Source: Vermamoeba vermiformis
Taxonomy: Eukaryota
Direction of reading: 5' to 3'
DNA length: 64,000 nucleotides
Assembly (NCBI GenBank): GCA_045837725.1
Contig: JBEWZL010000219.1
Location: 186,001-250,000 of the forward strand
Under the pieces are notes generated by a model. It made no database searches. It saw only the letters and a list, made by a program, of their open reading frames with translations, and was not told the origin of the DNA. Below, piece by piece: positions 8,597 to 64,000 of this stretch (positions within the stretch are counted from its first letter, which is position 1; each line of letters opens with the position of its first letter). A program made the translations under genes and the position numbers.

Positions 8597-8991
8597 CTCG
8601 CGTACGAGTTTAGCACAAAATCGGGAATTGGAAGCCTCTCGCTCTTGTGTTCACGAGCGAATAAAGTGATTTCGTGTGGAATTGACGTTTTGGACAGGGC
8701 CTGTTGTGGTTTTTGAGCTTCATATCCCGAAATTGGTTAAACAATAATGCCATAAATAACTTGAACACTCAGTTTTTGATCTCTGGTATAGGTTGAGGAT
8801 TGAAAGTTGACCGGTACTAATCCGGAAGTTATTGAAAAAGCCTCCAACTCTCGCATACTGCCTTACCATCAACGAAACTAATATTCTATTAGAACTCAGA
8901 TCTATTTGTCTCGTCTTTGGTCTTCGCGCCGTGATGACTGGTTGTGCTGCGCAGGATTAGTCTGTTCATTTCCATTTTCTAGACAAACACA

Positions 8992-14900: not shown

Positions 14901-17601
14901 ATGGCAGACAAATCACACAAAAAGCATAAAGATAAAAGTAAGTATAGCATTATTAGTATTAATATTAAATATCTTGCATAATTCTCGTGTAATCAAGCAA
15001 AGGGAGAATTCCGATCACCGTTTCAGTCCTGTTATTTATAATTGCGCATATTTCAATATATCCGCGCTACTTTAATTATATATAAAAATAGTTGATTAAT
15101 AATTGCAAAGATATTTGGGTCAATAATCGACACCAAATTTATTTTCCGATCAATAGGTACCCGCCTTTTCGTTTAGAATATTATTCAATTACTATTACAA
15201 TGTATTTAAGCATCTTTAGCTCTAGTATGGAATTACGCTTTATCTTATTCCCTTTCTTATCGCTGCTTCGTGAAAACTTTTAGGTGATCAAAGACGATCT
15301 CCGAAAACTATTGATTCTTGAACGAATAACTCGATCATGAATGATCATCGCATAGATCCACCTTACCTCTAATATCTTTCTTAAATAATTCTAACCGCAG
15401 ACAAATATTATAAAATAGGATCGGATGTTATCCTTTTTACGTTGATCCGAGCAAAATCTTTTCTCATACGATTAAATGATCTAAATCATAGGACAAAACA
15501 CGGGTAGATCATGTTTGTTAATATTTCTAAATATAGGTTCGAAAGACAAATCCAACCGAGACTCCAGAACCATCAAGACCGACTCACCTCGCCACTCGGT
15601 GCACGAAAACAACCACAAAGAGCACACGAGAGACCACTCTAACCATAAAGAGCCCAAAGACAATGCTTTACGACGCACCGACAGTGATCTAAATTCCGGC
15701 GTGCCAGATCTAGTTAGCCCACGAGGTATTTCTCAATTATTATACTCATTTATACTACCCGATATATACGCTATTGTTAGCTTGGGCTTGCGGTTTCATG
15801 AAATCATAGATATTCAACTAAAAGTGACACGTGACGCCTGACATTTGCCAAATAAGTCGCTTGAGCTGATTTTTGATTCACAGAATCTAAGCGAACGGAG
15901 AGAGAACGCAAGCACAAAGAGCACCACAAGGACCGCGAGCACCATCACAAGGACAAGGATCGCGAGCACCGAGACAAAGAGCACAAAAAAGTTTCGAGTC
16001 CGCGACGTCATGCCACGGAGTCGGTTACAGTGCAACAACGCGAACAAGAGCACGTGATCAATGTGACGAATAAGGACGACGATTACAGCGAGGTCACGAT
16101 CAGCAACTACTATACACCCAATGGCAACAACACCGCCCCAGCGCTGGATGGCTTCATCGTGAAGAGCACTGACTTGTCCAGTCCGCGTCACGACTCTGCC
16201 ATTGCGATTCCAAAGCGCGTTGAGTCTGACAGCGATGTTTACTCGAGTCAAGTCAACTCACCGCTTGTCTCTTCGGGCACCAAGGTAACGCTAACAGAGT
16301 CGATTGCGTACAATGCTCACGGGCTGTTTAGTCCTTACAGAGTTCAGCAAGTCCACCAGGGATGCATTCACTGGCCTCCTCAGGGGTGTCTGAAAGTGAA
16401 CCAGGCCGCGCGCTGCCAGAGATTGAATGGAAAGAACTCGTGCTGGACTTGGAGAACGTGCTGGGAACCGGTGCATTTGTGAGTACCGCCATGCATTGTG
16501 AATCGTGTGCTCATACTGCAATAATAGGGAATTGTGTATAAAGCCAAGTGGCGAGGAGCAACAGTCGCAGTGAAGCAGTTGAAGGGCATTGATGCGGAGA
16601 ACTTGGAACACTTCAAACGCGAAGCTCGTATCATGCAGTAAGTGTCAAAGTGTCAAAATATTCATCAATCGATCTCACCACTCATCAACAGCAAAATTGG
16701 CAATCACCCCAACATTGTGCGCCTGTGTGGTATCTGTACCGAGCCCGGCTTATATGCCATTGTCACCCCTTGTTACAAACACGGTAAGTTGAAATAAGCG
16801 TGTCAGTCAGCGAGCTAATTGTCCAATCAGGTTCTGTGCACGATCAAATTGTGAAGAACAAAGTCAAGTTGGAGTGGCATCAAATCGTTAAAATTGCACG
16901 TGACGCGGCAGCAGGTACGGCACTAAATACATCCTCGTGAGCGCTTGATGACTTACACTTGACAGGTGTCTATCACTTGCACTGCGAGCGATTCATACAT
17001 CGTGACATTGCAGCGCGCAATGTGTTGTTAGACGATCAGTGGAATGCCATGGTGTCAGACTTCTCGCTCTCACGCATTCTGTCACCGGGCATGGCTGGAC
17101 ACAAAACTGTTTCTGCGTTTGGACCCATCAAATGGATGCCACCAGAGGCTCTTCTTCATCAGCATTACTCGTCCAAATCTGACGCGTATTCATTCGGCAT
17201 ATTCTTGTGGGAATTGGTGCGTGATCAAATTGATTCTATCAGTGGCACTTGCATTCATACTAACTTGATATCATCTTCAGTACTATCGCGATGATCCATA
17301 CAATGGCATGAAGGCCATCGAGGTCATACCACGCGTGTTGAAGGGAGAGCGGCCACAGATCACTGAGAACTGTGACCCGTTGTTCAAACAGCTGATGGAG
17401 CAGTGTTGGCTCGAAGATCCAGAGAAGCGTCCGTCCTTCCGCCACATTGTAGACTTACTCGACAACTACTACGAGGAGCTGTTGCACCACATGACGCGCA
17501 ATGCCTCGTCGAGTCCGCAAGGCACCGCTAGTCCCATTACAAGTCCTTCAAACAGCTCTGGCAACAACAGCAATGGCAGTGTGAGCAGTCTCAACTCGTG
17601 A
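14901..17601 (+). CDS. TKL/tyrosine-kinase-like protein kinase with a His/Lys/Asp-rich N-terminus
   Basis: Spliced GTGAFGIVYKAKWRG, VAVKQL, HPNIVRLCG, HRDIAARNVLL, DFSLSR, GPIKWMPPE, SDAYSFG, CWLEDPEKRPSF. Confidence 0.93.
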
Positions 17602-37594: not shown

Positions 37595-38035
37595 TTACTG
37601 AATGTTGATCTTGGCTGCAGCAGGCTTGTTCTCGGGCTTAGGCAAGACCACCTCGAGCACTCCGTTGTTGAAAGTCGCTTGGATCGCGTTGGCATCCACG
37701 CCTTCAGGAACAGCAAATGAGCGTTGGAACTTGCCGTAGGAGCGTTCAATGCGATGGAACTGTTCCTTCTCATCTTTCTTTTCAAACTTGCGCTCACCGC
37801 TGATGGTCAGCACGCCCTTGTCCAGCTCGACATTGACCTCGTCTTTGGTGAGGCCAGGCAACTCGGCGTGCAGTACAACTTGCTTGTCTGACTCGCGCAC
37901 ATCGACTTTAGGACGCCACGAAGCGATGTCCTTGTGGGCCTCGGCGAACTCGGGCGAGAAGAACTTGTTCATCTGCTTCTGCATGTCGAACAGATCGTCA
38001 AAAGTTTCAGCTCCGAACCAGCGTGACAAAGACAT
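37595..38035 (-). CDS. Small heat shock protein, HSP20/alpha-crystallin family
   Basis: Intronless; WRPKVDVRE, AELPGL, LTISGER, IERSYGKFQRSF, NGVLEVVLPK, C-terminal INI motif. Confidence 0.97.
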   Translation of the reverse strand: MSLSRWFGAETFDDLFDMQKQMNKFFSPEFAEAHKDIASWRPKVDVRESDKQVVLHAELPGLTKDEVNVELDKGVLTISGERKFEKKDEKEQFHRIERSYGKFQRSFAVPEGVDANAIQATFNNGVLEVVLPKPENKPAAAKINIQ

Positions 38036-38139
38036 GATTAATTGGTGTTGTTGTGTTGTGTGTTTTTTAGTGTTGTTGAATGAGTTGATCTGCATCTTGC
38101 TTTCTTTTTAAGGCTGCGCTCGTTTGTGAAAATAAAATT

Positions 38140-40004: not shown

Positions 40005-40285
40005 TGCTTCAATAATATACCACTAGTGCTATTCTCTTCCGTTCTTTCTCGTTGTACACGTCACTGAGTGAATTGACAAAAAGATTGAGCTGTCAACAAG
40101 TGTCCCGGACCATTTGCCGGGCCCGCAGAATCTTCCGCAGAAATGGCTTGTTTGGCAAAATTGTCCAATCAAACTATATAAAAGTGTTAGTTATATTATA
40201 TTGTTAAAAATTATCGATAATTTACCTGCTGTCGCGCGATAAATTTTGTGTCCGGATCTGGAACTTGGTTTATCCTCCGAATCAC

Positions 40286-42035
40286 TCACACGCAACAATA
40301 GCAGCAGTGATATTCATTGTCTGCAGGGTCCTCGTGGGTACGGCGACAAGTTTTGTAGGCCTCCGTGTACAGTCGCTTGTTGGTGGCAAATGCGAGCAAG
40401 TGAATGATGCCGGTCAGTCCAAATGCGATTGTCAACGTCAACGACCATTCATAAGTGAGCGCAATGGAACCGCCCATGCCTGCAATAGCGATTTGCCTAA
40501 TTTGGAAACGCCGTTAGAAAAATGAAACGAACACCAAAAGTATGGCAGGCGTAATGTTAGGGATCCGAGAATTGAATTCGTACCTCACGCGCACAGCCGT
40601 GGCAAGCAGAAATATGCTGCAGAACAGCGTGATGAATGTAATCAAACGGATTTGAAATGACGAGACTGAATTGACGGCTTGTTGATACTCTTGAGTCTGC
40701 TCTTTGTTGGCCTTTTTCTATTCATACCAAGGTTAATATAAGACGTTCTATAGTTATATATTATAGTACTCACCAGTCTGTATACTCTCATTTGTACGTG
40801 CACGACAATAATGATAGTGATAATGAGCGAGGCTAGTGCCAAGGGACCGATGAAAATGTACCCCAAAAACAAGATCCAATAGCCGTTGTCTTGACTGCTT
40901 AAGAAACACCTGCAAACATAATACGTTAAGTATAAGCAACGAAGGGCATAATGTTCCGCGATAGTTTTCTAGCTAAAGAGCTCGAATTCTGAAATTTGAA
41001 AATTTCACGGTGGTGTCATCCATTTTGCCGGTATAAATAATAATAAAATTTTATATTACGTTCGTGAAATTAATGTCAAATTCAGATCGATCTGAAGCAA
41101 AAAAATGGTTATTTTTCGAACTTACCACACGCCAGCAGGTGCGTGGACTTGCGCGATGAGACCCGCTAGGACTGGCAGGAAGGGAAACACAAAGCCAATG
41201 ACCAAGTACAACTGCTCTGCTTTGCGCGGTTGCGAGAACACGCGAGCTTTAACTAATAATAGATACAACTGGAGGCGCATCCGAACCGAAATTAGAAAGT
41301 GTTTTTGAAACTGCGCAGAAACAGGTCAATTGAGACTTACGTGGATTGTACATAAGAATACCCAAGTACTCCACGATAAGAAGCCGTAGTGGACTATCAT
41401 GCCTGGTTTCATAATAATTCAATAACTTGCCTTTTAAGGAAATAATCAGATCTTAAGGTAGTGGTACCTTGAACTGTGCACGCAGGGGACCGTTCGTTCA
41501 TTCTTGCCGGATAGCCTGCTATTGTTCCAAGAGGCACGCCTATAAAAGACTCAATTTAAACGAGCGTTCTATTGTGTTTAGCTAAAATTAGTTTTTTTAA
41601 ACCCAGTTTAAGGAGAAAAACTGAAAAGCGCCTGTGTTTAAAACTTTAAATAAAGAACTTTAAATATCTTACCTGCGCTTTGAATAATTGCTGGAATTAA
41701 AGCGTACCAAAAGATGCTCGAGGGAAACTGACGTGCTTTAGGAATTAATCTGGCGGAAAAAATGATTAGGCTCGTCGAAGAATTAAATTGGACCGTGTTA
41801 CTTATGGCGCTCATATTGCAATGCAAATTAATCGCATCAGATCGGATACAAAAATTGAAACTGAACACGATCCAAAATAATCGCAACATAAGCTAATTAG
41901 AACAATAAATTGCCTTAATAATATCATTACGTACGAGTACCCCACGAATACAGCAGTATTCAGCACAAAGCTGGTCCAACCGAGCACATCCGTAATGACC
42001 TGCAGTACTTCAACTTGTTCAGGCGCTAGAGCCAT
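40286..42035 (-). CDS. 7TM GPCR-like receptor, tandem copy B
   Basis: Same exon structure and motifs as copy A; ends CCYCCV*. Confidence 0.75.
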
Positions 42036-42323
42036 GCTGTTGGCCCAAAACTGGTTCAAGAGTTGTCGCTGAGTATGAGAGACTGAAACAAATATTTAAT
42101 TTCGCTCGTTTCGCTCACAACAGGACGGAGAAATTAATTTCCATAAATGAATCGTTTGGCAAATTTTCAAATCTTCAATAGAAATGCTAAAAAAATGAAA
42201 TGGTTGGTATGTCTTACTTGGTTCAAGTCATGCATGGACCGTAACTTCAGTCGTTATCGATAATGATGCTGTCTATTTTTAGTTGGTGCGGATTTGCGGA
42301 TTTCGTATTCCTTCGAAAATCAT

Positions 42324-44332
42324 TTAGACGCAGCAATTGGTCTTAATGTTGTGAGCCCTTGGAGCTGATCGACAGCGACATCGTCTGAATGCATTTTTGT
42401 AAAGAGACTTGTTCGTAGCGAACGCAAACAGATGTATAATGCCAGTGAGTCCAAATGCAATGGTCAATATCAGCGCCCAGTCATAGGACATAGTAGGCGA
42501 GCCTCCTAGATTCGCTATGATGATTTGCCTAAAAATAACTCAAATTAACCACCGGGCAAATGACCCGACGGAATTTCCGTTGAGATTGCCAACGTTCAAG
42601 AAGAATAAACGCTAAATATAGCACCCATTTTAATATGTACGTACCTGATGCGCACAACAGTGGCCAAGAGAAATATGCTGCAAAACAACGCGATGAAGGT
42701 AATCAATCGTTTCTGAAATGACGACATTGAATTGATAGTGTGTTGGTACTCTTGCGTCTTATTTTGATTTTTGCGCTATAATAGTGAATAAGATATACTA
42801 CGAATGCCCCGTATCTCGGCGGACCCATTTTCTCAACATTTTTAAAGCCTGCTTGGCCCATACATTTCTCGGCATTTTTGATCCAGCGCCCGCGGACAGA
42901 AATAGTGGAAAATTATTTATGTATATTCAGGTGGGAAGGGGACTAGCGAGGCGACACCAACCTGAACCGCGCCCCAGGGAAATTTTAAGCACGAGAGTGC
43001 GCGCGGTGGAAAGAGGATAAGAAAAAACTGGTGGAGAGGGGAAGTTTGAGGTGTAACGGTTCTTTTCACCGAACAAACCAAAAAATCTGGCAAGCCCTGA
43101 AATAGTGTATCATAATAAATAACACCCAATGCCGTAACAGTAAGGGTGATATTAAAAAATTTTAGAGGTGAATGTTGAGATATTATGGTCTATATGTAAA
43201 GCGTGCCACTCGAATTTCATTTAATAAAGCGGCGGAACTTTTTACGTACCAACTTCCAGAGCTGCATTTGCACGTGCCCGACAACAATGCCAGTGACTAT
43301 AAGCGCACCTAACGATAGGCCTCCAATGAATATGTACGTCGTGAACAGGATCCAGAACCCGTTATCTTTGCCAGTAATGAAACACCTGTGGCAGCGGCTA
43401 AAATTAGCGAGATACGATACCACGGCGTTAAAATCCTCCGAAATCGGGGAAATTATATCTCCGAAGCGGGAGATACGAGCACACTGCTCACGGCCAACTG
43501 TCTGGTTACTAAATTTAACTTACCATACTCCAGCAGGCGCATAGACTTGTCCTATTAACGAAGCCAAGACTGGAAGGAACGGCAGCACGAATCCTATCAT
43601 TAGGTAGCGCCGATCTGCTTTGTTTGGGTTGGCGAACACTTTGGATTTGACAATCAGCAAGTAGAGCTGAAAAAATTGCGTTAGCTGCCATTAAAGAAGA
43701 ATTCAATGTCCGACTTACGTGTATCGTCGATATAAACACCCATGTCGCCCAGGATAAGAAGCCATAATGAATGATAACTCCTAAAGATTTAATACGATAA
43801 ATTTTTTGGATCGGATCCGTCACAATCAATATTTGTTAATTGCCAGATTGATACCTTGTAACGTGCATAGTGGCGAGGGCTCATTTTTGAGCGCAGGGTA
43901 CCGGAAAAAAGTTCCCAAAGGCACGCCTAATTAGGAATAATAGAAAAATTAGTGCAAAGTCCTACGGCTCCTTTCCGAGATTAAGTATAACGATATAAAT
44001 CAATAGTATACCTAGACTTTGAATTACTGCTGGTATTAGCGCGTACCAAAAGACGCTTGAAGGGAACTGCCGCGACTTTGGATTTAGACTAAAATAATAA
44101 ATTATTGGTTAATTAATCGAGGTGATCAGCATTATTTGATTGTATGGTTTCTATCGTTTATTGATGCATCATTATCATTATATTCTATCGAATTTCCTGC
44201 TATTGAGTTGCAATTAATTTATTCTTACCCGTAGCCGACAAATACTAACGTATTGAACACAAAGCTCGTCCAGCCCAAGACATTAGTGATGGTCAATAAT
44301 GTATATAGCTGTTGTGTTTCTTCGTCGCTCAT
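42324..44332 (-). CDS. 7TM GPCR-like receptor, tandem copy C
   Basis: Same exon structure and motifs as copy A; ends TNCCV*; one intron is expanded to 474 nt. Confidence 0.75.
42822..43190. mobile_element. Possible MITE-like insertion in an intron of receptor copy C
   Basis: Perfect inverted repeat tctcaacatt (42831-42840) and aatgttgaga (43171-43180), with imperfect outward extension. The host intron is 474 nt versus about 62 nt in paralog D. Confidence 0.35.
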
Positions 44333-45089
44333 CTTGTTAGAGAAAGTTTGTCGCTGTAGATCCACAGAAAATCTTTCTTTCAATCAGATCCTCGCGGGTA
44401 AATAGGGACCCCTTTTATATTATTAAATATAACTATAATACGATCACATTAGAATTTTCAGCGCCGTTGGATTGTAATGGCGGATCAAATGAATATTTTA
44501 CCTGACCTCGGACCGTGAGCTCGGCGTTGTTCTTCTCTCGGTCAATCTGTAAATTAATCTGTTGCATTGATTGACGAGACACCGGTTCACGCGAATTATT
44601 TGGAATGCAATGTAATCTAATTATAGATGGCTTGGATCCTGTGGCGATGGTTAGATTCTCGTGACAATAAATATAAACATTGTTACCTTCAATAACTACA
44701 TTGTGTTGGAGCGATATTATACTTTTGTTATTTAAATCTTCGGAGCTCCTCCGTTCTGTTAAAATAAAATTGCTGAATTTTCGAACAACTCTTAACTTGA
44801 GTCTGAAGTTTCCACCGTTCAATTAAAAGATACTATTGTCAATAATTAATAGGCTGCGATAATAAGTTCAGTTTATTACCAGCAGATGCGGCACACTAAG
44901 TCCTGCTTCCTTATGCTAATTCTCCGGACCGAGAATTCTCTTCAAATCATATCCGCAACTCTCTTCTTATTAATACTAATCTTCTTCAACTTTCGCGGAT
45001 GGATCCGATGCTTCAGTGAAAACTTCTCACGTTTTCAAGATCCCTTCGCGTTAGAAATTACTGTCGAATATTCTCATGCTCAACATAGC

Positions 45090-46583
45090 TCACACGCAGC
45101 AATTGGTGTCGCTCGATTGATTATGCGACCGTTTGATGGATTTGCAGGCCTGTACGTAGAGGTCCTTGTTGGTGCCATAGGCCAGCAAGTGAATAATGCC
45201 CGTGAGTCCAAAAATGATCGTCAATAATAATGACCACTCCCACTCGGTTGATGCACCAGTAGTGCTGGATAGATATATCTGTCTGTATAGTTGTAAGCGA
45301 AAAATAGTAGCAAAAAGTGGATCCACAATAAAATTTGCAATTTTCAACGTACCTGACGCGCACGCCTGAACCGACGAGAAATATCGTGCAAAAGAGCGCG
45401 ATGAATGTAATCAAACGCTTTTGAAAGGATGAAATTGAATTGATAGCGTGGCGATATTCTTGTGTTTTGTCTTGGCTGCGCTTCTGTTTGTCGATCGTTA
45501 ATACGGTGTGAAATTATATCATTTGCATTGTATAATAGCACTCACCAACTTCCACAATCTAATTTGCACGTGCGCTACAATAATGGCGGTAATAATTAAC
45601 GCGCCGAGGGCCAAGATAACGATCCATAAGGTGTTTGTAAATAACAACCAATAACCGCTATCTTTCGTAGTCACATAGCACCTAGTGAATATGACGCGTT
45701 AGTAATGAAATATCAACGGAATAATTTGCAGCGGAATTAATATCTTACCAGGCACCGGAAGATCCGTAAGCACGACCGATAAGTGCCGCGAGGACTGGTA
45801 TGACTGGCAACACGAAACCAAGCACGAGGTACAGTCTGTCAACGCGCTCTGGATTCGCGAAAACTTTTGCCTTGACAATGAGCAAGTACAACTAAATTAG
45901 GAAATGTTAGAATTGTTGCAAAGATTCAACCTCCGCCCCGCGTGAATATGATGACGTGGCGGTCAGTTCAGCGTGGGACTTACATGTATAGTCGATATGA
46001 ACACCCAGATACACCATGAGATGTATCCGTAGTGGATGAACAGTGCTGGATGTGCCACGTGTTAGCAATGCTAAGAGATTAATAAACTGCAATATAATCA
46101 GTACCTTGCAACGAGCATAGCGGGGAGTCTGGCGCGTTGATAGCTGGATCGCCTGCAAAAGTGCCGATTGGAACGCCTAAAATAGAAACAAATGTCAGAT
46201 ATACTTTTTCTGAATCCAGGATTAGGGATATGTGTGGTATGAAGCGTAAATAGATGTTAATTTCAATTTATATATTTAATTATTTAATTCTACTATTTAC
46301 CTGCACTTTGGACTATCGACGGAATTAACGCATACCAAAAAATGCTCGAGGGAAATTGGCGAGCTTTCGGATTTAACCTGCAATGGAATATTTTTAGTCT
46401 CGCTTGACAATATTTTCAAAGTTCAACTCAGTTAAATGTTGATACAATTAATTTTGAGCAGATCCGTAGCGAAGATTCTTACCCGTAGCCAACAAAAATT
46501 AAAGTGTTGAAAATGAAGCTCGTCCAGCCCAAAACATTAGTAATGGTTAATAATATGAATATTTGGTGTTCGTCAAAAGCCAT
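45090..46583 (-). CDS. 7TM GPCR-like receptor, tandem copy D
   Basis: MAFDEHQIFILLTITNVLGWTSF..., same exon structure as copy A; ends TNCCV*. Confidence 0.75.
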
Positions 46584-46984
46584 GTTGTTGTATAAATATG
46601 GTTTGTTTTTGACGATTCAAAGTTACGGTCGGATTTGGCTTTAGATGACCTAGAAATTTCTTCCTGTTAATAGCTATAACTAAAATAATATCTTATTTTG
46701 AAACTTACTTGCATATGTGGTATTCAAACAAGATAATTTCCATTGAATAAAAACGTAATCGTTATAAAAATTGTCTGGAGTTCGGCACGCGGATAGAATT
46801 TTGTGTTTTGCAATTTGAATCAATTCGAAACGGGTAATATAATGCGGTACGAGATAACCAGAGTCTCAGTTATCATTGCGTATACCGTCAGGCAAGGTTC
46901 ATTCATAATACTTATAAAGATTTTCATCGCTCGAATTTCGTTCGAAAATTTTCTATTTACACAATATCAGATACGTACAATATA

Positions 46985-49761
46985 TTAGGGACTGTATGCC
47001 TCCAGTACATCCACTATCTCGTTAAATGACGGCCTAGTATAGAAGTTATGAGAACAGCGGGAAAACATTTAAACGAATTTTCCGTGGTTGGATCACATAC
47101 GGCATTACGTCTTTCGAATCTTTGAAACTTACCTATCGTCAGGGTCATTACTACAACACCTCTTAATTAACGATTGTATGTCAGCATTCCATTGAGGGTT
47201 CAGCGGGAACAGATCCGCTTGTTGTGAGGTAACATCGTGGATTACCCTACAAATACAGCGTTAGTCGATAATATATAGAGATAATACTATCATTGTATTA
47301 CTTAGCAGCTGCCTTTCCGTAATGCGGTGGCTTGCCGTTCCAGATCTCCCACAGTACAACACCAAAGCTGCAGAGATCATTAGCTCGCTGATTACGAATT
47401 GATAGCTATTTATATAGTAGTACCTGTATATATCAGCTTTCTCGGAATAAGACTCTTCTTTGATGACTTCAGGGGCCATGTACTGCACGGTACCGATGTT
47501 GCTGTAGCAGGATTAGCAAAACCAAGTTTCTCGATTATAGTAGTACTCGTATATTTACCTCATCGTATTGCTAGCTGATTTAATTCTGGCCATGCCAAAG
47601 TCACACAATTTAGCCTTCAAGTTCGCATCCAACTAGATATGCGCGTTAGCAAAACTAGCAGATCCAACATTATCGATGCTACGTACAAGTATATTATGCG
47701 TTTTCAAGTCTCTGTGCATGATATTCAGAGAATGAAGGTAAATGAGACCTTTAGCACAGTCAAGCGCAACTTGTTTCTGTACGCGTGTTATGTTAGTCAC
47801 AATAATTATTATTGTACCGATCATAAGACTAACTAATTATTACCTTAGTCGCCTCGCTCAACTTGAGTTTCTTAATGTGCAAGTAGTCGAATAGACTGCC
47901 GTGTTCCAAGAACTCAGTCAAGATGTACATGTCATTCGGTGTCAAACTCACACCGAGCAGTTGAACCACATTCGGATGACTCAATTTACTATTCCATAGT
48001 ATTAATAACTATAATATGAGCAATAGTGAGCATACCCCAAGATGCTGACTTCTTTCAAGAAGGAGTCAATCATTTCATCGTTGTTCATGCGCACGAGAAG
48101 TCGTTTCACTGCAACATCGAGCTTGTTCCACTTGCCTTTGTACACTTCTCCGAACGCTCCTATTGTCAGGACATGTAGTTAGTCACACCTTGACGCGAGT
48201 ATGAGTGTTATCGAGTGATCTTACCGACACCAATCTTGGTGCCAATGGACACTTTCTCGAAGTCCACAAATGTCACGGTGGTCGCATTGTCGACTTGAGT
48301 TCTCAGGAACACACCACCATCGCCAGAGGACATAAACATTAACGGTGACTTCTCGTCGTTGATGTTTCCTTGCCTCAATTTCATCGTGTGACTCGCTTGT
48401 GTGTCGCGTACGAAACACCAATAAAGTAACGGACAATAGACCGCGGTGTACAACGAGATTGATATGCCCATAAAGCTATCGGAGTCATCAATTAGTACCT
48501 AGCAATAACAATGCATAATGTCTTACCAGAACCCGCTGTCATTGTCTGCCAAGATGAGAACAGTCGCTGCTGCCACTAAGCTGTAAAGGCAGCCAAGATA
48601 CACGACCCATGGCAGCAACGCACGACGTACTAAATGAAAGAGTTTGTTAAGTATGAAATGGAGCCACTAGTGTTGTTGCTCGTACCTCGTTGTTCATTGC
48701 CCGGCAGCAACAGGAAAGATATCGCAAAGATGTAAAAAGTTGCGAATAACAAGTACGAATAAATGGCTTGTGGAGCTGAGAATAGCGTTATTAATGCATA
48801 TAACTCGCTATTAGAATATAAATACCTGGAAAAAACAAGTGACACACATCGCAGCTGTGGTCGAACGAGTACGTGAACTACAATAACGGTTAGATCTGGC
48901 TTGATATATTCGTCCACTCCTTACCATAAGCGCTACTTTAGCGATCGTTAATAAGCACGTGATTAAAAAGGCTTTGCGAATGGCGTTCTTGTCCGAATAC
49001 GGAAAGAAAGCTATCGACACTAAAAAATTATCCCACACCGCTGTATATTACAAAAATTAGCTTAGTTAACAGCTACTATAATATTATTACCATGTCCTAC
49101 AAAGAGCACGCCTTAATAAAATCGTTAAGGACCTTCATAACTAAAATAGAAAAATGAAAATGTAACAAGCGATGGAAAGGATACGAGAGATAATCAGTGA
49201 GACTAAGGCGCTCATTGGAATAACTACTTCAAGAGCTTGCAATACGAACCATATGGTCACGAACAGACTAATAACAAGAGTTGGTTAGAATTGGATCCGG
49301 ACCCGGTTTAAGTACCATTCTAAAGAACTTCTCGAGATTGACTTTAAGACCGGTCAATAGTTAAATAATATCGTGCTTACCTATATAAATGATAAATGCG
49401 TAATATAGAGAAGCTTTGATAGCTCTTGTTAAGTCTAAAAAGTAAGTAAACAAATCCGAAGATGAAAAATCCACAAATGACCATATTGCCAAGATTACTA
49501 TCGGTATATCCTAGCGACACCTCGATGTTGATGGCCTTGCAGCATGTCTCTAACAAAAAGCGGATTAAGTTTCAAAAAAGCCGAAAAAGTAAGCCCGCCT
49601 ATTTTAACCTTTATTTTGTTGAACTTTATTATTACTGTAAAATGGTCTTCAAATTATTATTGATATTAGCGCGAACTGAAATTAAAAATAGGGATCCGCA
49701 GCAAAATCGTCTTACCGTTACAGCTGATCGGGAAAGGCGTGTGAATACCAGGCCAATTCAT
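46985..49761 (-). CDS. 7TM (TPRA1/GPR175-like) receptor fused to a TKL protein kinase, copy 1
   Basis: About seven hydrophobic segments ending ...RRALLPW...GFCFMGISISLYTAVYCPLLYWCFVRD, continuing in the same exon toward GVGAFGEVYKG, VAVKRL, HRDLKTHNIL, DFG and APE. Confidence 0.85.
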
Positions 49762-50600
49762 CTATGATATTGTCTTATTTATTTGAAAGAGTTGAAATGG
49801 CGCTTATGAAATTAGTGGACTTGTCTGCTCCATTGTTCTAGAATCGGAATAGAATGACCACAGAAACACAACTCAACTTGTGTTAACTTTCTAAATTGTT
49901 GAGCGACAGATTAATCTATTCAACTATTTTATGCATATTGACGCCAAGAATGCGCGATTCAATTGCATCTTATGTGCATCCTTTGACCCGATGGTTACGT
50001 GTACAATGGCAATTTTATCGTGGATAATTAAGGAAGTATTATTTATTCAAATGCACGTCGAAAATATCATTGGCAAAGGCACCCTAATTAATTTAATTTA
50101 ATTTCGGATTTTGAATCCCGTCAGAGTATTCGATACACAGCAGCGATTAATTTAATCATTGGATTCGTGTTCATATTACGCCTCAATAATTATAGCTATT
50201 ACCACGGTTCCAATTATTGCGACTTACTAGCACCTCCCATCCGTATCTTCAGGCCAACATCCTGCGCTACTACTGCTACGCTGCTCAATCCTGAAGACTA
50301 CGTTCTGTTCTGAAGTAAGATGAGCAAGGTAAAATACAACCGAAGAGTCATTCAGCGGTCAGTCTCGAATATTACAAAGCTTCTAGTGCCGGAGATGGTT
50401 CTTCTTGTAAACTTCTATTTTTTCCTTTTCAGGCAACTGAACGATTGCTCTGCATTCTGGTGCAGAAGGTGTCAAAAAATATAAATACCTCGACTATTCA
50501 TTGGTTCTAATCATCAACTCAAACAACAAACTACAGCTTAAGAACAAATAAGTTCTTCTCTTCGCTCGACTAACTACATCTACCGACAACACTATCTAAC

Positions 50601-51620
50601 ATGTCTCAAAAGACCGTCATCTTAGTTACCGCTGCTAATGGCAACACTGGCAAGGCTGTCGCACAACATCTATTAAAGAGAGCCGATCGTGACAACTATA
50701 TCATCAGAGTTGGCGCTCGATCTGAAGACAAAGTCGCAGATTTGGTTAAACAAGGTGCTCAATACGTCTACATCGACTTTACTGATGCCGAGAGTCTTCA
50801 TGCTGCTACTAAGGGCGTAGACCGCGTCTGGGCAACTGCACCAAACCCAACTAAGCAACAAAAAGAAAACGATCGAATCCACCTCGTCAACAACTTTATT
50901 GACGCTGCGCAAAAGGCTAATGTCAAGTACTTCCTATTTGGCTCTGTCCTTGGTGCTCGTAAGTACCCGTACTAACTAATTAACCTCTTCAAACTGATTC
51001 CTAACGAGTTTTCTTTCAGAATACGAATCCGTTACATTTGCTCGCGAGTTCAGACTTGCTGAAAAGAAATTAGAAGCCAGTGGCATTCCTTACACTCACC
51101 TTCGCATGGCTGTATTCCAAGTAAGAATTATATTATCCCTTTGAATCCTAAACGTAGAGTCCTAATGCGCGTTACCTACCAGGAAAATTTTGCCGGCCAA
51201 AAAGACAACATTGCCAAGGGATTCGTTGCTGAACCACTGAATGAAGGCTCTTACTGCCCTGTATCGCTTGAAGACGTCGGCATTGCAGGCGCTGAATTGC
51301 TGTTGAATCCTCATCCGCACGTGAACAAGGCTTATGACTTGACTGGTCCCAAGGCCCTGACTGGCGCACAAATCGCGCATCGTCTCAGCAAGGTCGTGGG
51401 TCACAAGGTCACTTATGTCAATGCAGATCCCGAACAAACCTATCAATTCTTGAGCCAGTTCATGGCTGACTACCAAGCCAAGGGCATGCTCGAGTTGTAC
51501 AACATTTTCTCGCAAAAACTCGCCAGCACACCGAGCAACGACTTTACGCTCATTACTGGTCGCACTGGCACTCGATTTTACAACAGAATGAAGCAGTTGA
51601 AGGCTTGGGGTGCTTTGTAA
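50601..51620 (+). CDS. NmrA-like NAD(P)-binding atypical SDR
   Basis: ILVTAANGNTGKAV, GVDRVW, AEKKLEASGIPYTHLR, PVSLEDVG, YDLTGPKALT; two short introns. Confidence 0.9.
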
Positions 51621-54148: not shown

Positions 54149-54801
54149 GAGTCCGGATCTTGTTCAAACAGATCCGAGCTACAGAATGATGACTAAGGAC
54201 GACAAGAGCAAGCAAGAAATTTTGGAGCAAATATACTTTGATATTTCAACTATATAATAACTTGGCAATTACGAGCAGAAGGAACAGTCCTAAAGGTTAC
54301 CTGGCATAATATGGCTTGCGTGTCATTCAATACTATTGGCACTGCCGTAGAATAGAATCACTATGGCTCATATTGCGCGTGTGTTGAATTGTTGCAGATA
54401 CGACACATATGACTAGGACCCCGCAGATCGAATGGTAAGAATATCGTATTTCAGTAAAACAGAGTGCTGACGAAGGTATTAGGAGCAGTGTTAGACCTCA
54501 CTACGCTAGCCTGCTATATAGCACGAAAATATCAATATCGGAAAACTAGTCATTCCTAATATGGAAATGCGTCAGAAACCTTCCTGATTAGGAAGCTTCG
54601 ATAGTGAAATTTCAATGCAACCACGTGATAGAACCATCCTAGAACGTTTGTAGCGTGTGTACCAACGGAAAAAAGGCACTTTGGAAAAAAGATAAATAGC
54701 AGCTCGATCTACATTCAATAAATTCAATTCAGCTGAACAACACAACACAGCACCACATCAAATCACCCTTCGTTAATTTAATCACACTAAATCCCACTAC
54801 A

Positions 54802-55564
54802 ATGTCATCTACACAAAAACTCGCAGGCAAAGTCGCAGTCATCACAGGAGGCTCGACAGGCATTGGTCTCGCCACGGCACAATTGTTCGTGCAGCACGGC
54901 GCTCATGTATTCATCACTGGACGACGCCAAGCTGAACTCGATGCAGCCGTGCAACTGATTGGTCGCGAACATGTCACTGCTGTTCAAGGGCGATGTGAGC
55001 AACTTGGCGGATCTGGATCACTTGTACGACGTGGTCAGAAGCGAGAAGGGCCACATTGACATCGTGTTTGCCAATGCCGGTATCGCCGAACAACTGCCCA
55101 TCGGTGCCATCACTGAAGAACACTTCGACAAGCTGTTCAACATCAACGTCAAAGGTCTCGTGTTCACAGTTCAAAAGTCACTGCCCTTGTTGTCAGAACA
55201 CGCGTCAATCATTCTCAACGCGTCAGTCGTGTCCATCAAAGGCTTCCCTGCAAATAGTATCTACAGTGCCACAAAGGCAGCAGTCAGAGCCTTGGCGCGA
55301 AGTTGGGTGCTCGATCTGAAAGGCAAAAACATCCGCGTCAATGTGGTGAGTCCTGGACCCGTTGAAACACCCATTTTCGAGCGAGGAGGCATGAACGAGG
55401 CACAAGTCGCTGGCGTCAAAGAGTTTATTAAATCTCAAGTGCCGATGGGCAGATTTGGTCGATCTGAAGAACTCGCCAATGCAGTCTTGTTCTTGGCCTC
55501 GAGTGACAGTTCGTTTATGACCGGTGCCGAACTATTCGTCGATGGCGGATTTGGACAAGTCTAA
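54802..55564 (+). CDS. Classical short-chain dehydrogenase/reductase, intronless, with an apparent +1 frameshift at 54988-54990
   Basis: TGGSTGIG, then after removing one [36 protein letters not shown]. Confidence 0.9.
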
Positions 55565-55807
55565 ATGGAGACAAGCCCAGATCTGATATTCTGGAATTCT
55601 TGACAGGCCCTGGTCGATCTATGACACGAACCTTTGTAATTAAAATATTATCAATAAATTATTTAAATAATCTACATGATAACGCAATTGCTAGGCAATT
55701 AGACTTCATATTGCAATAAACTACTGCAATTTGGACGGACACCGTCAAATAAACGAACCACATCCAAAAGACTAGTAATATCGTATATTATTATTTGTAT
55801 TCTAAAA

Positions 55808-57582
55808 TTACAATCTTTCAGTAGTCGTTGATATTTTGTTCGATGATTTGGACGAAGTTTTCTTCGTTGCTTTAGGCACCAGAACGAGACTCTGAAACAG
55901 ATCTTGGATGCACAGCACGAGGTACGAGCTGAACCAGACAGTACCATAGGCGTGGGGTTGATATGACACTGCGGTGTTGGATAATATTACGAAAATAATT
56001 ACATGCGAAACAAGACAGCCACCGACGACAAGAATGTGCGAGGTGATCTGAGCAAAAAGATTATTACCAAAAAAGGAAATAAAATAAAATAATTATTTTA
56101 TAAAATGTACTTACCGTTCCAAGAGTTCTTCCGCGCTTGCTGTCTTTTCTACTCTTCCCGCGCAAAACTTTTGACAGTTTGCCAGCGGTCACGAAGAAAA
56201 ATATTGCAAAGGCGAGGCAGACAGCGGAATAAATCGCAGAATTGACGGTGATCATCGTGGTGATGAAGACACCTGTCAGCACTGTCAAGGCGCGCGTGAT
56301 GCCAAAGCCGATCTCAATGCCGAACAGAATCGCTATGATGATAATGAACGGGATCTTGAACTTGCCGAGCATTTGATTGACGTTCAGCGACATGCCGTGC
56401 ATGACATCATGCCTAAATATATATAGTCATTAATTTTAAAATTGATAAAATTATCGAAAATTATTTCGTTGGGAACGAGATCCTTTGTTGGTGGATTTGG
56501 TCTTTGAGTGTTTAAATGTCGAACTTACCAATAGAAGGTGATTAATATAGTAACAGACAAGCTGAATGGATGCGACAAACTGAGCACTAATTGTTGCATT
56601 GCTACTGGATAAATTGCGCGCGAAACAACGGGATCCACCGCGATATGCACCACACGCACTATAATCAAAAATAAGGTCTATATTCGCCAACTAATACGAC
56701 TCGCTTACGTATATTTCCAGTTATGATCAATGAAAGACAGACTTGAGGCAGTTTGCGTCTACATCCGGTTTCTTTAACGTGTTTCGCAAGTCTGTAACTC
56801 GCAAAAGCAATATTTGCCACGGAAAATAGCGTAATAAATACTTGGAAAAAGATCATAAAGCTCTCGTTCCATGCTTTCCATGGATTGACTCCTACATTAA
56901 TAAATAAAATTAAACTGGGTGCAAGATCCAGCATAAAATGGATGTTTTTCTTACCGATTGGATTTAAAGTAGCTTCTAATGTTGCATTTGGTGGTAATGT
57001 ACTTAAAGCCGATGCAATTTTGTTGTAATCGACGAGAGAGATCTGCCACGCCGAGAGCGTTACGTCCGCAACGTCAGCCGAGTCCAAAATGTAGTTGGCT
57101 TGACCGGGATAGACTACATATGCGTTAATATGATGCACCGAATGGTCATCGATTTACGCATGTAGTATAATATTCATTAATGTGAATCGGATCTGGATTT
57201 TGTTTCAACTTGGAAATTTCGAACTTACTGCCTTGCTGCACGCTAATTATAACAGCCTTTGCACCTCTATTCTGCTCAGTTCTGATTTGAGAAAGATATG
57301 TGCCGCGGAACCAAGGCACCAGAACGATTTTGTCGATTACATCCGTCGCATTCCGAAACACGATCTCGCCATCGATTGTAAGATTATAAAAGTTGTTCCT
57401 ATATATTATAGGAAATGCAGTATATGTGCCAGCAATCGAATCAGGGCTATGAACAATCAGGTCTGTTGCAACGAATTGAAACGCAACAGCCAGAAGAATA
57501 GCAACGATGATCCCTATTTAAATAAAAAGAATTAATAAATAAAATTATTAGTATTTTAAATAATTAGACAGGCAGGGAACAT
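55808..57582 (-). CDS. Signal peptide and PA-like ectodomain followed by a THH1/TOM1/GPR137-like 7TM domain (start codon uncertain)
   Basis: LIVHSPDSIAGTY...DKIVLV...RGAKAVII is PA-like. LRVVHIAVDP...HPFSLSVTILITFYW is THH1/TOM1-like. Seven hydrophobic segments. Confidence 0.6.
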
Positions 57583-58988: not shown

Positions 58989-61750
58989 TTAGTTAATCAC
59001 GATGTTGCCTTTCTTTTTGCTCGTTGAAGCTTCAAGCTCATCGAGGATCTCGTCAAAACTCGGCCTGTACAAACACTTTAATACGTACTTTTAGGGCACT
59101 ATATTCATATATACTTACCTCTTATTTGGCTCTTTGTCGGTACATCGAGCAATGAGTGATTTGATGACTTGCGGCCAGCGATCTTGAACGGGGAAAAACG
59201 CGGCCACATCCGCACTCGTGACATCGTGAATGACCCTATAATAGGGAATAAGACCATATGTGAGGTATGATATGCTAGTTATTGCCGTACTTGACTGGTG
59301 TCTTGCCGAGGTGCGGTGGTGTCTCGCTCCAGAGTTCCCACAAAATGACACCAAAACTAGTTTCATGAATTGTCAGTCGGGTCCAAGTAACTGCATCATA
59401 TCAATAGAGATATAGGGCGTACCTGAACACATCTGATTTGTCGGTGAATGCGTCGTGTTGCATCACTTCAGGGGCCATGTACTGAACCGTGCCGATATTA
59501 CTAAATTAGGAAATAATGAGATGCTGTTACTCTACACTTAATAGGCTGTACGCACGTCATAGTCGCCGAGGCTGCTTTAATTCTGGCCATGCCAAAGTCA
59601 CACAATTTAGCTTTCAAGTTCGCATCCAACTACCGCGTGTTAGCAAACGATCAGATCCAACATTATCGATGCTACGTACGAGTATATTATGCGTCTTCAA
59701 GTCTCTGTGCACGATGCCCATTGAATGCAAATGTACCATGCCACGTGCACAGTCAATGGCAATTCGTTGCTGGAAGGACATCTTAGTACATTGACTGCCA
59801 AATTAGGAAACATGGCGTTGTACTCACTTTCTCTTGCGCGGTCAGGTTAATCTTTTTGCCCAAATTTCCTTTTTTGATGTGCAAGTAGTCGAAGAGGCTG
59901 CCGTGTTCCAAGAACTCAGTCAAGATGTACATGTCATTCGGTGTCAAACTCACACCGAGCAGTTGAACCACATTCGGATGACTCAACTTGCTGTTCAATA
60001 GTATTAATATGGAGGAGTAATATAACAGTGGTGAGCATACCCCAAGATGCTGACTTCTTTCAAGAAGGAGTCGATCATTTCATCGTTGTTCATGCGCACG
60101 AGAAGTCGTTTCACTGCAACATCGAGCTTGTTCCACTTGCCTTTGTACACTTCGCCGAACGCTCCTGTTGTCAGAACATGTACTTAGTCACACCTTGACA
60201 CGAGTACGAGTGCTATCGAGTGATCTTACCGACACCAATCTTGGTGCCAATGGACACTTTCTCGAAGTCCACAAATGTCACGGTGGCTGTATTATCGACT
60301 TGAGTTCTCAGAATGACACCTCCTTCATTCGTCGACATCAACAACAACGGTGCTTTTTCATCTTGAATTTGTCCGTGTCTGAGCTTGTGCGTGTGACCAG
60401 CTTGCGTGTCTTTCACGAAACAGTAGTACAGCAATGGACAGTATAACAAAGTATACATCGGAATATCAAAGCCCAAAACACTGTTTTCCGATTGCGTAAG
60501 AAAACAATGCAGCTGTCAATATGAACAAAGAGCACGTACCAAAATCCCACGTCCATATTATTCAGCGTAAAAAACGCTCCAACAGCAGCCGAAGAATAGA
60601 CGATGAACAAATAGATGATCCACGGCAAGATAGTTCGACGCACTGCACGACATTAGCACGCAGCTACTACTGATATATCACTCATACCTTTGTTTTTGTT
60701 GGCTGGCAGTGCGACGTAGACGAGTGCAAACAGGTACCACGCACTGAAAAAAATGAACGTGTACATTGATTGCGGAGCTTGAAATATCGGTTGTTATTAA
60801 TTCATGATTTCAACTAACATAAGAATTACTAAAGATTACCTGGAAAAAACAAATAACACACTTCGCACGCGTAGTCAAAGTAGTACGTGAGCTACGAAAC
60901 AAAATCAGATTAGGACAAGTCTATTTTAAGTCTAACGTACCATCATGCCGACATTTATCGTCATCATGCCACAAGCCCAAATAAATGCTTTTTTGTACGC
61001 GTTTTTGTCGCTGTACGGGAAAAACGCAATGCACACCAAGAAGTTGTCCCATAGCGCTAATTAAGCATTATAATCATTGGCTATGCGATAATATTGTTCT
61101 TACCATCGCCTCCGAATAAAATACCTTTAAGAACGAGCGGTTAAAGAAAAATATTGGTTCTAGAAAAAGTTCGGAATGACCCGTCAAAAGGATACGATCA
61201 ATAACCAGTGCTATTAACTCGCTCATAGGCACAATGACTTGCAGAGCTTGCAAGACGAACCAGCATGTCACGCATAAACTACAAATATTGCATTAATTTT
61301 TCGGCCGTTTCCAAATGGATCTGATCCCAGATAGCTTGGCAACATGTTGATTGAGATAAAATCATTATAACTAGTACCTGTATAAATGATAGACGCGTAA
61401 AATAGTGAAGCTTTGATAGCTCTTGTTAAGTTTGAAAAGTAGGTATAAAAATCCAAAGACAAAGAACCCGCAAACGACCATATTGCCAGCAGTACTATGC
61501 GTAGGGCCAATAGGAAAGCTTGCATTTAACGTCGTACAGCAAGAGCCTGAATATGGAACATGATTAAGTGGAATTATATTAACGGTTGAGAAAAAGGCCA
61601 TATTATTTGAACTTACAATTCATTAATTAAATAATGATCGAAGAGGATATAATTTTTGGTGTAATATTACGGCATTTATTCTTTTTTAAGTCGTTATTAC
61701 TTACCCGTGCAGTTGATCTCAAAAGGTGTTTGAAAGCCAGGCCACTTCAT
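58989..61750 (-). CDS. 7TM (TPRA1/GPR175-like) receptor fused to a TKL protein kinase, copy 2
   Basis: Paralog of 46985-49761 with the same intron positions; MKWPGFQTPFEINC..., YCPLLYYCFVKD, HRDLKTHNIL, DFG, APE. Confidence 0.85.
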
Positions 61751-61922
61751 TGCTTATTTTCTTGTTGCCGCAATTATTCTATTGTTCTATTCTATAATTC
61801 GAGATCATACTCGTGTTGCTCAGCTCGATTTGATTTAAAAAATGCGCATCCACGTGAGTTTGAACGGTGTTGGCTTATTTACATGATTAAATACATCTTC
61901 GCAATAAAAATATGATAGGCTA

Positions 61923-64000
61923 CTATTCGATGTCTTCCAATTTGACGTACTCGTCAACTTGCTTTTTGCTTTTCTTGCTGCTCGACTTGTCGATCACGAT
62001 CACTTCTTCGGAGTTATTGATGCTCTCTTCGGCGCTAGATGCTTGATTGTTATTAATATGAGAAGGAGAACCATCAGCGCTCTCCATCTCTTCTTCCTCG
62101 TCCAACACGAAATTCTTCGAGTCCGGTTTGGAATCCGTGGAGGATGACATCAATTTGGATTGGCGCTTGTTCCTTATCTATAATAATCGTATTAATTACT
62201 ATGGCCTCCGCACAAAAACTGAAAAAACTAAAAGGGTATCGTGGATTTGCGATCACAATGCATCCCGAAGTAAGACTTACTTCTGTTAGCGTAAACAGCA
62301 ACGAGAGGCAATGTTTCATCGAGAGCTAATAAGAGTGGAATAGCAGGAGACTCCCAACCGGTCATAGCAACAGAGTACAAGTGGTTCTTGACCTCCACAT
62401 CCAGCTGGTTCTGCAGCTCTTCGTCGGTCTTAATCACGCGGAAATCTATCATATATACATTAGTACTCGCAGTCTCTAATAAATATACTCCTTACCAATC
62501 TTATTCTTGCGGAACAATCGTTGCAAAATTGACGAAGTTCGGCTGTCCTCGCCTTGTTCAATTTTGATCACGGTCAATCTGGCCTCGCGAGCCTCGACTA
62601 TTTTTAGCGCGTAATCCAATGCCAAGTCATCGTGCGTGCCTGATTTGTACACGAAGAGAATGGACTCGATCTTCAATGCACCGGTCAACGAGCGTTGCAA
62701 AACAACCGCCACATTGCTCGAGCACTTCGAGATGATCTTGTTCATAGTCTAAAATAATAATGTTATTATAGTTATATTCAATATTAATTTATAATATTCA
62801 TACCGTGCCGCGCAGAGTTGTTTTCTTTGTGCCCATCACGATCAGATCCACTCCTCGCTGAACAGCTTCAGTCGCAATATCTTCGCCATAGTTAGAGCTC
62901 ATGCGTGATATGATCTATGAATATAACATTGTTAATGCCATTACTCAAAAAGAAAAAAGATCTCGTACCTCAGACACATCCAGTCTCAACATTTTAGCGC
63001 GTTGAGCAGCGGCAATAATAACATCGTCGTTCTTCTTAGCCTATAAAAGCGTTAGGAAGTGTCACTGGAGAGCACGTGGAGCTATGTACCTTGTCAGGGT
63101 TAGATGCCACGACGAGATCTGACGGTCTGTTACTGGCTTCGAACAAACGCGTGATGAACACTTTAGGCGCTGTTTTTTGCTTGTAATTCACGAGTGACCT
63201 AGCAAGAGTACGTTAGATGTTATCACTCTAATGCCTTTTATGTATTACTTACTGTGCCAAGCTGACCATCAGTGGCGCAGTCAGACTGTAGTTCGTGCAA
63301 ACCATAATGTTGATGGCTTCCTCACTGTAGACAATGGATACGTTATATTGACTTGTATTAATATCGAGCAGTCGCTACGTACTTTGGATTCATGAACTGA
63401 GGTGCATTGGACTGGTAAGGATTGCCACCAATGCGGAACACAAGAGCAACGAGCGGCGAGACTAACATGGTGTTGACAAGCACTGTCACGACGAGAATGG
63501 CAAAGAGACGCTCAGTGATGATGTTGTGCGTGATGCCCAAGTTCAATATGATCAAGGCCACGAGACCCTTTGCGCTCATCAAGACGCCAAAGACGGCTGA
63601 CTCAGTCCACGAGAACTTGCCGAGGAATCTAGCGGGCAGACCTTCGCCAACAGCTTTGCTGATAATCGCCGCAAATGTGCACAAAATGACGTAGCCCCAC
63701 ACGGTGCCTGAGTTCAAGAGGCCGAGATGAGTGTTCAGGCCAATGATAGTGAAGAACAACGGCAAGAACACTACGGTCACCAAGTCTTCAATACGCTCGA
63801 CCAATTGGTGCTGTAACAGTGTTAGTACGACGAGCAAATAAGTTGGGGTTAGCACTTACAGGCAAGTTGACAAATCGAGGCACGCAAATGCCAACCAAGA
63901 ACGCGCCAACAATAGCACTCAGACCAATAATTTCAGCGATCCTAAGTAGGTGTTAGTACTGATAATGATGCTAAATAGAGGACAGCACAACGTACCAGGC
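61923..64000 (-). CDS. CPA2 cation/H+ antiporter (Kha1/CHX-like) with a USP-like cytoplasmic tail, 5'-partial
   Basis: GLSAIVGAFLVG, IEDLVTVVFLPLFFTIIGL, GVLMSAKGLVALIILNLG; tail with DLIVMG and HDDLALDYA. Confidence 0.9.

Follow-up and report, generated by a model that had tools for sequence, protein, structure and literature searches.

Proteins in which a 7TM domain is followed by a cytosolic TKL kinase have been described under the names GPCR-TKL bigrams, GPCR-TMKs, and GPCR-TKL/K. They have been reported from oomycetes and amoebozoans (PMC5784254, PMC6033456), with 17 such fusions in Phytophthora infestans (PMC5784254), and a wide occurrence among oomycetes, ciliates, and amoebae has been described (PMC10463195). 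The two 7TM kinases of Dictyostelium are 7TMK1 (DDB0229939) and 7TMK2, and with them a predicted homolog of the gene described here has been catalogued since 2006 (PMC1420674). A 2025 paper adds 92 kinase-bearing members from acanthoecid choanoflagellates, whose 7TM domain it describes as unrelated, and its authors state that they know of no functionally characterized GPCR-TKL (PMC12716839). The class is defined by its layout and has several independent origins, and many of its oomycete members carry an added DEP domain.

Arabidopsis CTR1 is a Raf-like TKL kinase that is a separate chain under the control of ethylene receptors. As for the 7TM part, human TPRA1 is an orphan receptor outside the classical GPCR classes. 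The corresponding protein family, PF10160 (Tmemb_40, IPR018781), comprises TPRA1 (GPR175), CAND2 (PMTR1), and CAND8 (PMC12252195). The identification of CAND2 as a melatonin receptor is disputed, as is its coupling to GPA1 (PMC10971523).

Here, we describe a gene from Vermamoeba vermiformis, referred to as copy A, that lies in a window of 64,000 nucleotides (the whole stretch of DNA analyzed) and has the features of a GPCR-TKL bigram, namely seven N-terminal TM helices, a GPCR-like fold as judged from the model of a relative, and a C-terminal TKL kinase in the same chain; it has no DEP domain. The original prediction regarded 7TM–kinase fusions as rare and named 7tmk1 as a precedent. The rarity was overstated, these fusions being a described class. 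7TMK1 is more than a precedent, being by visual comparison a homolog across the helical domain. The design is already known, and the TPRA1 origin of its 7TM domain seems to be unreported in the open-access literature. The main text of PMC12716839 contains none of the terms TPRA1, Tmemb, and GPR175, and Tmemb is missing from PMC5784254 and PMC10463195; the main text of a survey of social-amoeba GPCRs (PMC10445921) mentions none of TPRA1, Tmemb, GPR175, and 7tmk. Within the open-access literature, no publication was found that connects 7TMK1 or GPCR-TKLs with TPRA1, and Tmemb_40, PF10160, and IPR018781 appeared in plant or algal papers. Also new are family members beyond the dictyostelids, Ser/Thr-type motifs where 7TMK1 is predicted to be of the Tyr type, and a second intact copy with apparent gene conversion.

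Gene structure and transcript support

Reading of the minus strand in three frames placed the ATG of copy A at 49761 and the end of the stop codon at 46985, which are exactly the limits originally predicted, and gave a product of 556 residues with no internal stops (Table 1). All 16 introns are of the GT-AG type, with lengths of 47 to 166 nt, and a branch-point-like word, mostly 15 to 23 nt from the acceptor, is present in 15 of them. The model of exons 1 and 2 is supported by the joints of introns 1 and 2 and by the relative P0014, and exons 3 to 5 include a 21-nt micro-exon (49111–49091) that follows an AAG acceptor. Upstream of the start codon, contigs of runs X2 and X6 reach 49829 unspliced, and a loose end of the X2 contig takes in the start codon of a short uORF. 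Copy B, the paralog described later, also has a nine-codon uORF; the two are unrelated, their distances to the respective starts are 58 to 72 nt, and their presence may be due to chance.

Table 1. Positions of copy A, its parts, its paralog, and neighboring genes, numbered from the first letter of the window
Feature	Position	Strand	Remarks
Copy A gene	46985–49761	−	TPRA1-like 7TM domain and TKL kinase; 17 exons, 556 residues
uORF of copy A	49804–49833	−	9 codons; 72 nt before the ATG; apparently within the 5′ UTR
Exons 1–2	49381–49761	−	Short N-terminus (three Cys, N-glycosylation sequon N15), TM1, ICL1, start of TM2
Exons 3–5	48925–49267	−	TM2, TM3 with conserved DN, ICL2, TM4; joints of introns 3 and 4 in run X1
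Exon 6	48826–48877	−	ECL2 with CxxC and FFP
Exons 7–8	48527–48775	−	TM5; ICL3 (short, invariant Arg); TM6 (conserved Trp); ECL3
Exon 9 (fusion exon)	48225–48475	−	TM7, linker containing EKSPLM (dileucine-like), and the initial strand of the kinase; splices to both exon 8 and exon 10 seen
Exons 10–17	46985–48159	−	Predicted Raf/CTR1-like TKL kinase domain with every catalytic motif; C-terminal end of the protein
Tract nearly identical to copy B	47868–48306	−	End of linker and kinase N-lobe, including introns 9 and 10
Second near-identical tract	about 47718–47574	−	Catalytic loop, intron 12, DFG
Copy B (paralog)	58989–61750	−	17 exons and intron phases as in copy A; 572 codons; each exon open
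uORF of copy B	about 61779–61808	−	9 codons
Heterotrimeric G-alpha gene	about 6820–8600	−	G000:C219:192858-194422; about 40 kb from copy A
TKL-like kinase gene	16528–17469	+	About 31% identical to the copy A kinase
Small heat-shock-like protein	37595–38107	−	Assigned by eye
Tandem array of membrane genes	40200–46650	−	Four or more similar multi-helix genes, rich in introns, immediately downstream of copy A
NmrA-like reductase	50601–51620	+	
Short-chain dehydrogenase	54700–55564	+	Higher GC; bacterial-looking by eye
Gene between copies A and B	55700–57520	−	Weak PA-domain match (E 0.005), then several hydrophobic helices; possibly receptor-like
Na+/H+ exchanger	63358–63855	−	

Splicing was assessed in four of the 13 listed runs (X1, X2, X6, and X11), in which spliced reads or contigs support 14 of the 16 introns. 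Introns 1 to 13 were seen as joints, those of introns 10 and 12 with 4 and 1 strain-variant letters at the cut, respectively, and intron 14 is represented by adjacent pieces of one contig; introns 15 and 16 have no coverage. Run X1, which is classed as RNA only by the guess of the tool used, contains one spliced contig of 595 nt that leads from exon 8 (TM6) through exon 9 to exon 11 (kinase) with four differences, and this single spliced piece from TM6 to the kinase argues against separate transcripts for the two halves. In X11, which contains raw RNA reads from a relative (mostly 90–95% alike), 25 reads cross intron 9 and 10 cross intron 10.

The possibility that an incorrect gene model or misassembly had joined two genes draws some weight from the lack of any single read or contig spanning the whole of copy A in the runs compared, and from P0013, which combines the helices of one paralog (relB) with the kinase C-lobe of another (relA) and looks like an assembly chimera; such chimeras do occur in this family and call for caution with its assembled data. 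However, exon 9 by itself leads from TM7 over a 48-residue linker to the first strand of the kinase, ending at the GVG in the glycine loop, so that the last helix and the start of the kinase lie in one exon, as the original prediction had it. The spliced contig from exon 8 to exon 11, the raw reads of the relative across intron 9, and copy B, which has the same 17 exons, point the same way. Arcella and Copromyxa provide full-length transcripts of the fused form, and the relatives P0001 (449 residues) and P0003 (467 residues) run from TM4 to the end of the kinase in a single chain. An artifact is thereby largely refuted and has become highly improbable, and the earlier claim of a real fusion stands.

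The tandem array of membrane genes contains the repeated motifs GFWILF, RQFPSSIFWYALIP, and IIFGLTGIIHL and looks GPCR-like by eye; the five ORF pieces of it that were scanned gave no Pfam match under E 0.08. The pieces of the short-chain dehydrogenase overlap in different frames near 54960–55060, which indicates a frameshift or a small intron.

The seven-helix domain and its relation to TPRA1

The hydropathy profile of copy A (Kyte–Doolittle) shows seven peaks of at least 1.5 within residues 35 to 244; in the kinase part, no peak reaches 1.2. Seven helices are also seen in the models of two relatives, in agreement with the seven TMs originally proposed. These structure models were made with AlphaFold for the relatives P0057 and P0024, not for copy A itself. 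In the model of the Arcella relative (mean pLDDT 84, pTM 0.75), TM7 extends as a helix of 38 residues. The 7TM-only model of P0024 was most similar to GPR155/LYCHOS (Z 15.0, rmsd 4.0 over 214 aligned residues), followed by class A GPCRs, with SUCNR1 at Z 13.4 and many GPCRs at Z 11–13.4; values of 13–15 are modest for helical bundles. A Foldseek search with the 7TM model matched 7TM proteins exclusively, none at E ≤ 0.001, and a sequence search of the PDB with the TM profile gave zero matches at E ≤ 10. On the basis of these models, the TM domain is predicted to have a GPCR-like fold.

The resemblance of the TM region to TPRA1/GPR175/Cand2, noted by eye in the original prediction, was borne out by profile–profile comparison. 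Alignment of a 32-row family profile with a profile of ten stand-alone PF10160 proteins using hhalign gave a probability of 98.9% and an E-value of 1.5e-17 over 232 columns, covering all seven helices from the N-terminal Cys through the end of TM7. The match to the Tmemb_40 model itself, which had been suggested as a check, was obtained in part: P0001, a relative with 81% identity, scored 28.7 bits against a cut-off of 25, whereas P0003 (21.9 bits) and exon 9 of copy A (E 0.015, a weak match) stayed below the cut-off. In the exon-by-exon scan, the other five TM-region exons of copy A gave no Tmemb_40 match. In a feature search with the TM part of the Arcella protein, which we treat as a lead only, the top three look-alikes were Tmemb_40 clusters (0.86–0.87); weaker look-alikes, with scores under 0.9, were GPR137 and THH1/TOM1.

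Judged by these profiles, the helical domain of copy A is a distant relative of the stand-alone TPRA1/Cand2-type proteins, best described as a TPRA1-derived domain and not as a TPRA1 ortholog. The two groups differ in several respects. Stand-alone members score about 170 bits against PF10160, compared with 15 to 38 bits for the fused family, and carry no kinase; their YYSEMKD/EM-type tail is replaced in copy A by the linker and kinase. The CxxC and FFP motifs of ECL2 are typical of the kinase-fused family and are missing from the consensus of the ten stand-alone proteins. In a quick tree, the stand-alone proteins form a long separate branch, the placement of which is unreliable (long-branch warnings). 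A search of the V. vermiformis genome with P0072 did not find a stand-alone TPRA1, the sensitivity of such a search being low in this intron-rich genome. A family search of the same genome, which was insensitive in that it missed copies A and B themselves, returned one weak Tmemb_40 match (E 0.078; L001, positions 139–270, G000:C203); it lies at the start of its contig, opposite the 3′ end of another gene, and may be due to chance or represent the final exon of a TPRA1-like gene that stands alone.

The kinase domain and comparison with 7TMK1

The kinase part of copy A contains the glycine loop (GVGAFG, residues 309–314), the VAVK lysine (K329), the glutamate of helix αC (E347), the catalytic loop (HRDLKTHN, 421–428), DFG (441–443), and GTVQYMAPE (458–466), so that the motifs are all intact, as originally claimed. 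Six of the seven kinase-only exons scanned match protein kinase families, two of them weakly. CTR1 was the closest solved kinase both by sequence (the best regular match, E 8.8e-53) and, in a model-based comparison, by fold (3ppz, TM-score 0.92). Accordingly classified from its sequence, the domain is a predicted complete Raf/CTR1-like TKL kinase, with the difference that CTR1 is separate from its sensor whereas copy A would have sensor and kinase in a single chain. Kinases of the RD type are usually activated by phosphorylation of the activation loop, for which S449, S451, T453, and S455 are candidate sites in copy A. Because the domain combines HRDLKxxN with a GT motif before APE, which indicates Ser/Thr specificity by a published rule (PMC1420674), it is predicted to be of the Ser/Thr type. 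The name "Bud32" given by JGI to P0001 and P0003 was rejected, since both are TKL kinases.

Comparison with Dictyostelium 7TMK1 was done by eye. Over TM6–TM7, an ungapped alignment shows 18 identities in 60 positions, and motifs align in TM1–TM3 too. Shared features are YLLFRL at the end of TM1, GH..DN in TM3, R-x5-W leading into TM6, D-x-G-[FY]-C and Y-x-PLL..D in TM7, an N-terminal Cys pair, and a linker motif of the ExxPLL type. Three dictyostelid 7TMK1 orthologs show the same motifs in the first about 400 letters given for them (PMC5784254, Table S3b), and none of the shared motifs was seen by eye in 7TMK2. The likeness thus goes beyond mere resemblance, and the receptor half of copy A is, by this visual alignment that carries no score or E-value, a predicted homolog of 7TMK1. 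Dictyostelid members differ from copy A in that they have a long ICL1 insert and C-x4/5-C in place of CxxC, lack FFPxP, and are longer by about 130 residues. The kinase halves differ more clearly. 7TMK1 has HRDLSTKN and GHLCYQAPE, without a GT motif, and its kinase is predicted to act on tyrosine and to be close to SplA (SplA-like CZAK type; PMC1420674), in contrast to copy A with its Ser/Thr-type motifs. Orthology did not extend to the kinase half, and strict orthology of copy A with 7TMK1 is not claimed.

Copy B and gene conversion

The one other locus found in a search of the genome is copy B, 12 kb from copy A in the same window. The TM exons 2 to 8 of the two copies share only 34 to 65% amino acid identity, compared with 98% DNA identity in exon 10. 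Introns 9, 12, and 10 are 91%, 83%, and 76% identical, respectively, compared with 41 to 65% for the other 13 introns and with a background of 240 nonmatching pairs averaging 48% and reaching at most 71%. This pattern, in which two tracts are nearly identical including their introns (Table 1), is that expected of gene conversion across the kinase N-lobe and catalytic loop, as we infer. P0001 and P0003 show the same pattern (N-lobe, 101 of 107 residues identical; TM region, 80 of 141), their common source organism being an assumption. The two paralogs would then join different sensors to a homogenized kinase core.

Distribution and phylogeny of the family

A profile search with TM3–TM7 plus the linker among 1.84 billion sequences yielded 42 representatives at E ≤ 0.001. 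In the 41 that were scanned, a kinase was found in 21, Tmemb_40 at E ≤ 0.05 in 24, and both in 16; seven, one of them a stand-alone member, passed the Tmemb_40 cut-off. Representatives of at least 380 residues contain a kinase in 19 of 20 cases. Every one of the 20 listed chains long enough to include the catalytic loop keeps HRD(L/V)K, and kinase activity therefore appears to be under selection. Of 20 members looked up, six have an organism label, namely Copromyxa, Arcella, Clydonella, Balamuthia, Salpingoeca urceolata, and "Symbiodinium sp. KB8"; the labels of P0037 ("Symbiodinium sp. KB8") and P0054 (Salpingoeca) may reflect mixed samples. Identifiers of P0054 were not found in one supplement of PMC12716839, the sequence supplements of which may list it. 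The 1022-residue member P0042 has a FIST-like domain behind the kinase (E 0.004). A word-index search with the TM-fragment alignment for long relatives gave none at E ≤ 0.01; it also missed known members of those lengths.

Near-invariant columns of the alignment are an N-terminal Cys, the DN of TM3 (D in 25 and N in 21 of 27 rows), the CxxC and Pro of ECL2 (Cys in 29 and 31, Pro in 31 of 31 rows), the Arg of ICL3 (32 of 32), and the Trp of TM6 (29 of 31), together with GxC, YxPxL, and Asp in TM7. The linker varies from 36 to 111 residues, a range that fits tethering better than tight mechanical coupling. Dileucine-like motifs are overrepresented behind TM7: PL[LIM] occurs within 60 residues in 11 of 23 chains, compared with 0.5 expected from shuffled sequences, and [DE]xxxL[LIM] in 8 of 23, compared with 2.3 expected, these counts being taken from related, nonindependent rows after one of 24 chains without an anchor had been dropped.

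In trees of the TM region, the closest partners of copy A are Arcella and Copromyxa, in groups with support of 92 and 0.944, which points to a tubulinean amoeba as the probable host. The TM and kinase trees share three shallow groups, namely copy A/relA/relB, Arcella/Copromyxa, and P0047/P0054, and the pairwise distances in the two regions were uncorrelated (Spearman about 0, reached by 497 of 1000 permutations; 18 rows). Because the two trees agree only at shallow nodes, a single ancient fusion with deep co-inheritance finds no support, and kinase exchange is possible.

Discussion

In copy A, an outside N-terminus followed by seven helices would place the kinase in the cytosol, and this layout suggests a receptor kinase of the 7TMK1 group in which one chain both receives the cue and passes it on by way of its own kinase. 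We consider this to be about an even bet (probability roughly 0.5), with sensing, coupling, and target inferred. The outer or luminal face, pinned by the N-terminal Cys, the CxxC of ECL2, and a Cys at the top of TM7, would sense a small cue, and the resulting change would travel down the long TM7 helix or alter the pairing between chains. The kinase could then autophosphorylate and phosphorylate a cytosolic target, for example in a MAPK cascade, without needing a G protein; judging by the dileucine-like motif in the linker, the protein may cycle via endosomes or phagosomes. Retention of the fusion across the family (kinase in 21 and kinase plus Tmemb_40 in 16 of 41 representatives) supports a receptor kinase, and plant CAND2/PMTR1 is reported to activate MAPK independently of Gα (PMC10971523, PMC12252195). 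The unsettled receptor status of the stand-alone relatives, TPRA1 being an orphan and CAND2 disputed, counts against such a role, as does the presence of many Gα genes in the V. vermiformis genome (58 exon-level matches), which makes G-protein output possible.

The main rival, which we regard as a real though clearly less probable option, is that the 7TM domain is no sensor and serves as an anchor or sorting module that holds the kinase, constitutive or regulated in some other way, at the membranes of endosomes, phagosomes, or lysosomes. The closest modeled fold match, the GPCR-like domain of lysosomal GPR155/LYCHOS, would fit this, as would the weaker look-alikes GPR137 and THH1/TOM1 (scores under 0.9), the variable linker with its enriched dileucine-like motifs, and the reported recycling of human TPRA1 between the surface and early endosomes by means of its C-tail (PMC12752648). 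Yet the near-invariant outer cysteines, the ECL2 motif, and the polar DN of TM3 exceed what an anchor needs, and the divergence of the TM exons between paralogs that share a kinase core suits distinct inputs. Slightly less probable still, and in our view unlikely, is a true GPCR in which the fused kinase acts as a built-in desensitizer or second output, as in models C, F, and G of PMC6033456. The predicted GPCR-like fold, the numerous Gα genes, and the reported binding of Arabidopsis CAND2 to GPA1 (PMC12252195) would agree with this, but that coupling is disputed (PMC10971523), and copy A lacks DRY and NPxxY and has an ICL3 of about nine residues, although TPRA1, too, lies outside the classical classes. 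In addition, a kinase close below TM7 may crowd the G-protein site.

Returning to the receptor-kinase reading, a bolder version holds that the 7TMK1 group is an old and wide TPRA1/CAND2-derived receptor-kinase lineage, found in amoebozoans, a craspedid choanoflagellate transcriptome, and several other lineages, in which a ligand in the TPRA1-type bundle acts as the direct switch of the kinase; this we regard as tentative and rather improbable. If true, it would provide the first GPCR-fold protein controlling its own protein kinase. A minor additional hint at a common output from different sensors comes from the paralog pair, in which the kinase core has apparently been converted. The value of the locus lies in tying the unstudied 7TMK1 family to TPRA1/CAND2, an orphan group with disputed ligand and G-protein coupling. 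A natural TPRA1-type bundle wired to a kinase makes sensing testable through autophosphorylation, and Dictyostelium 7TMK1 offers genetics; were the kinase indeed switched by a ligand, these proteins would carry a built-in readout for what TPRA1-type domains sense.
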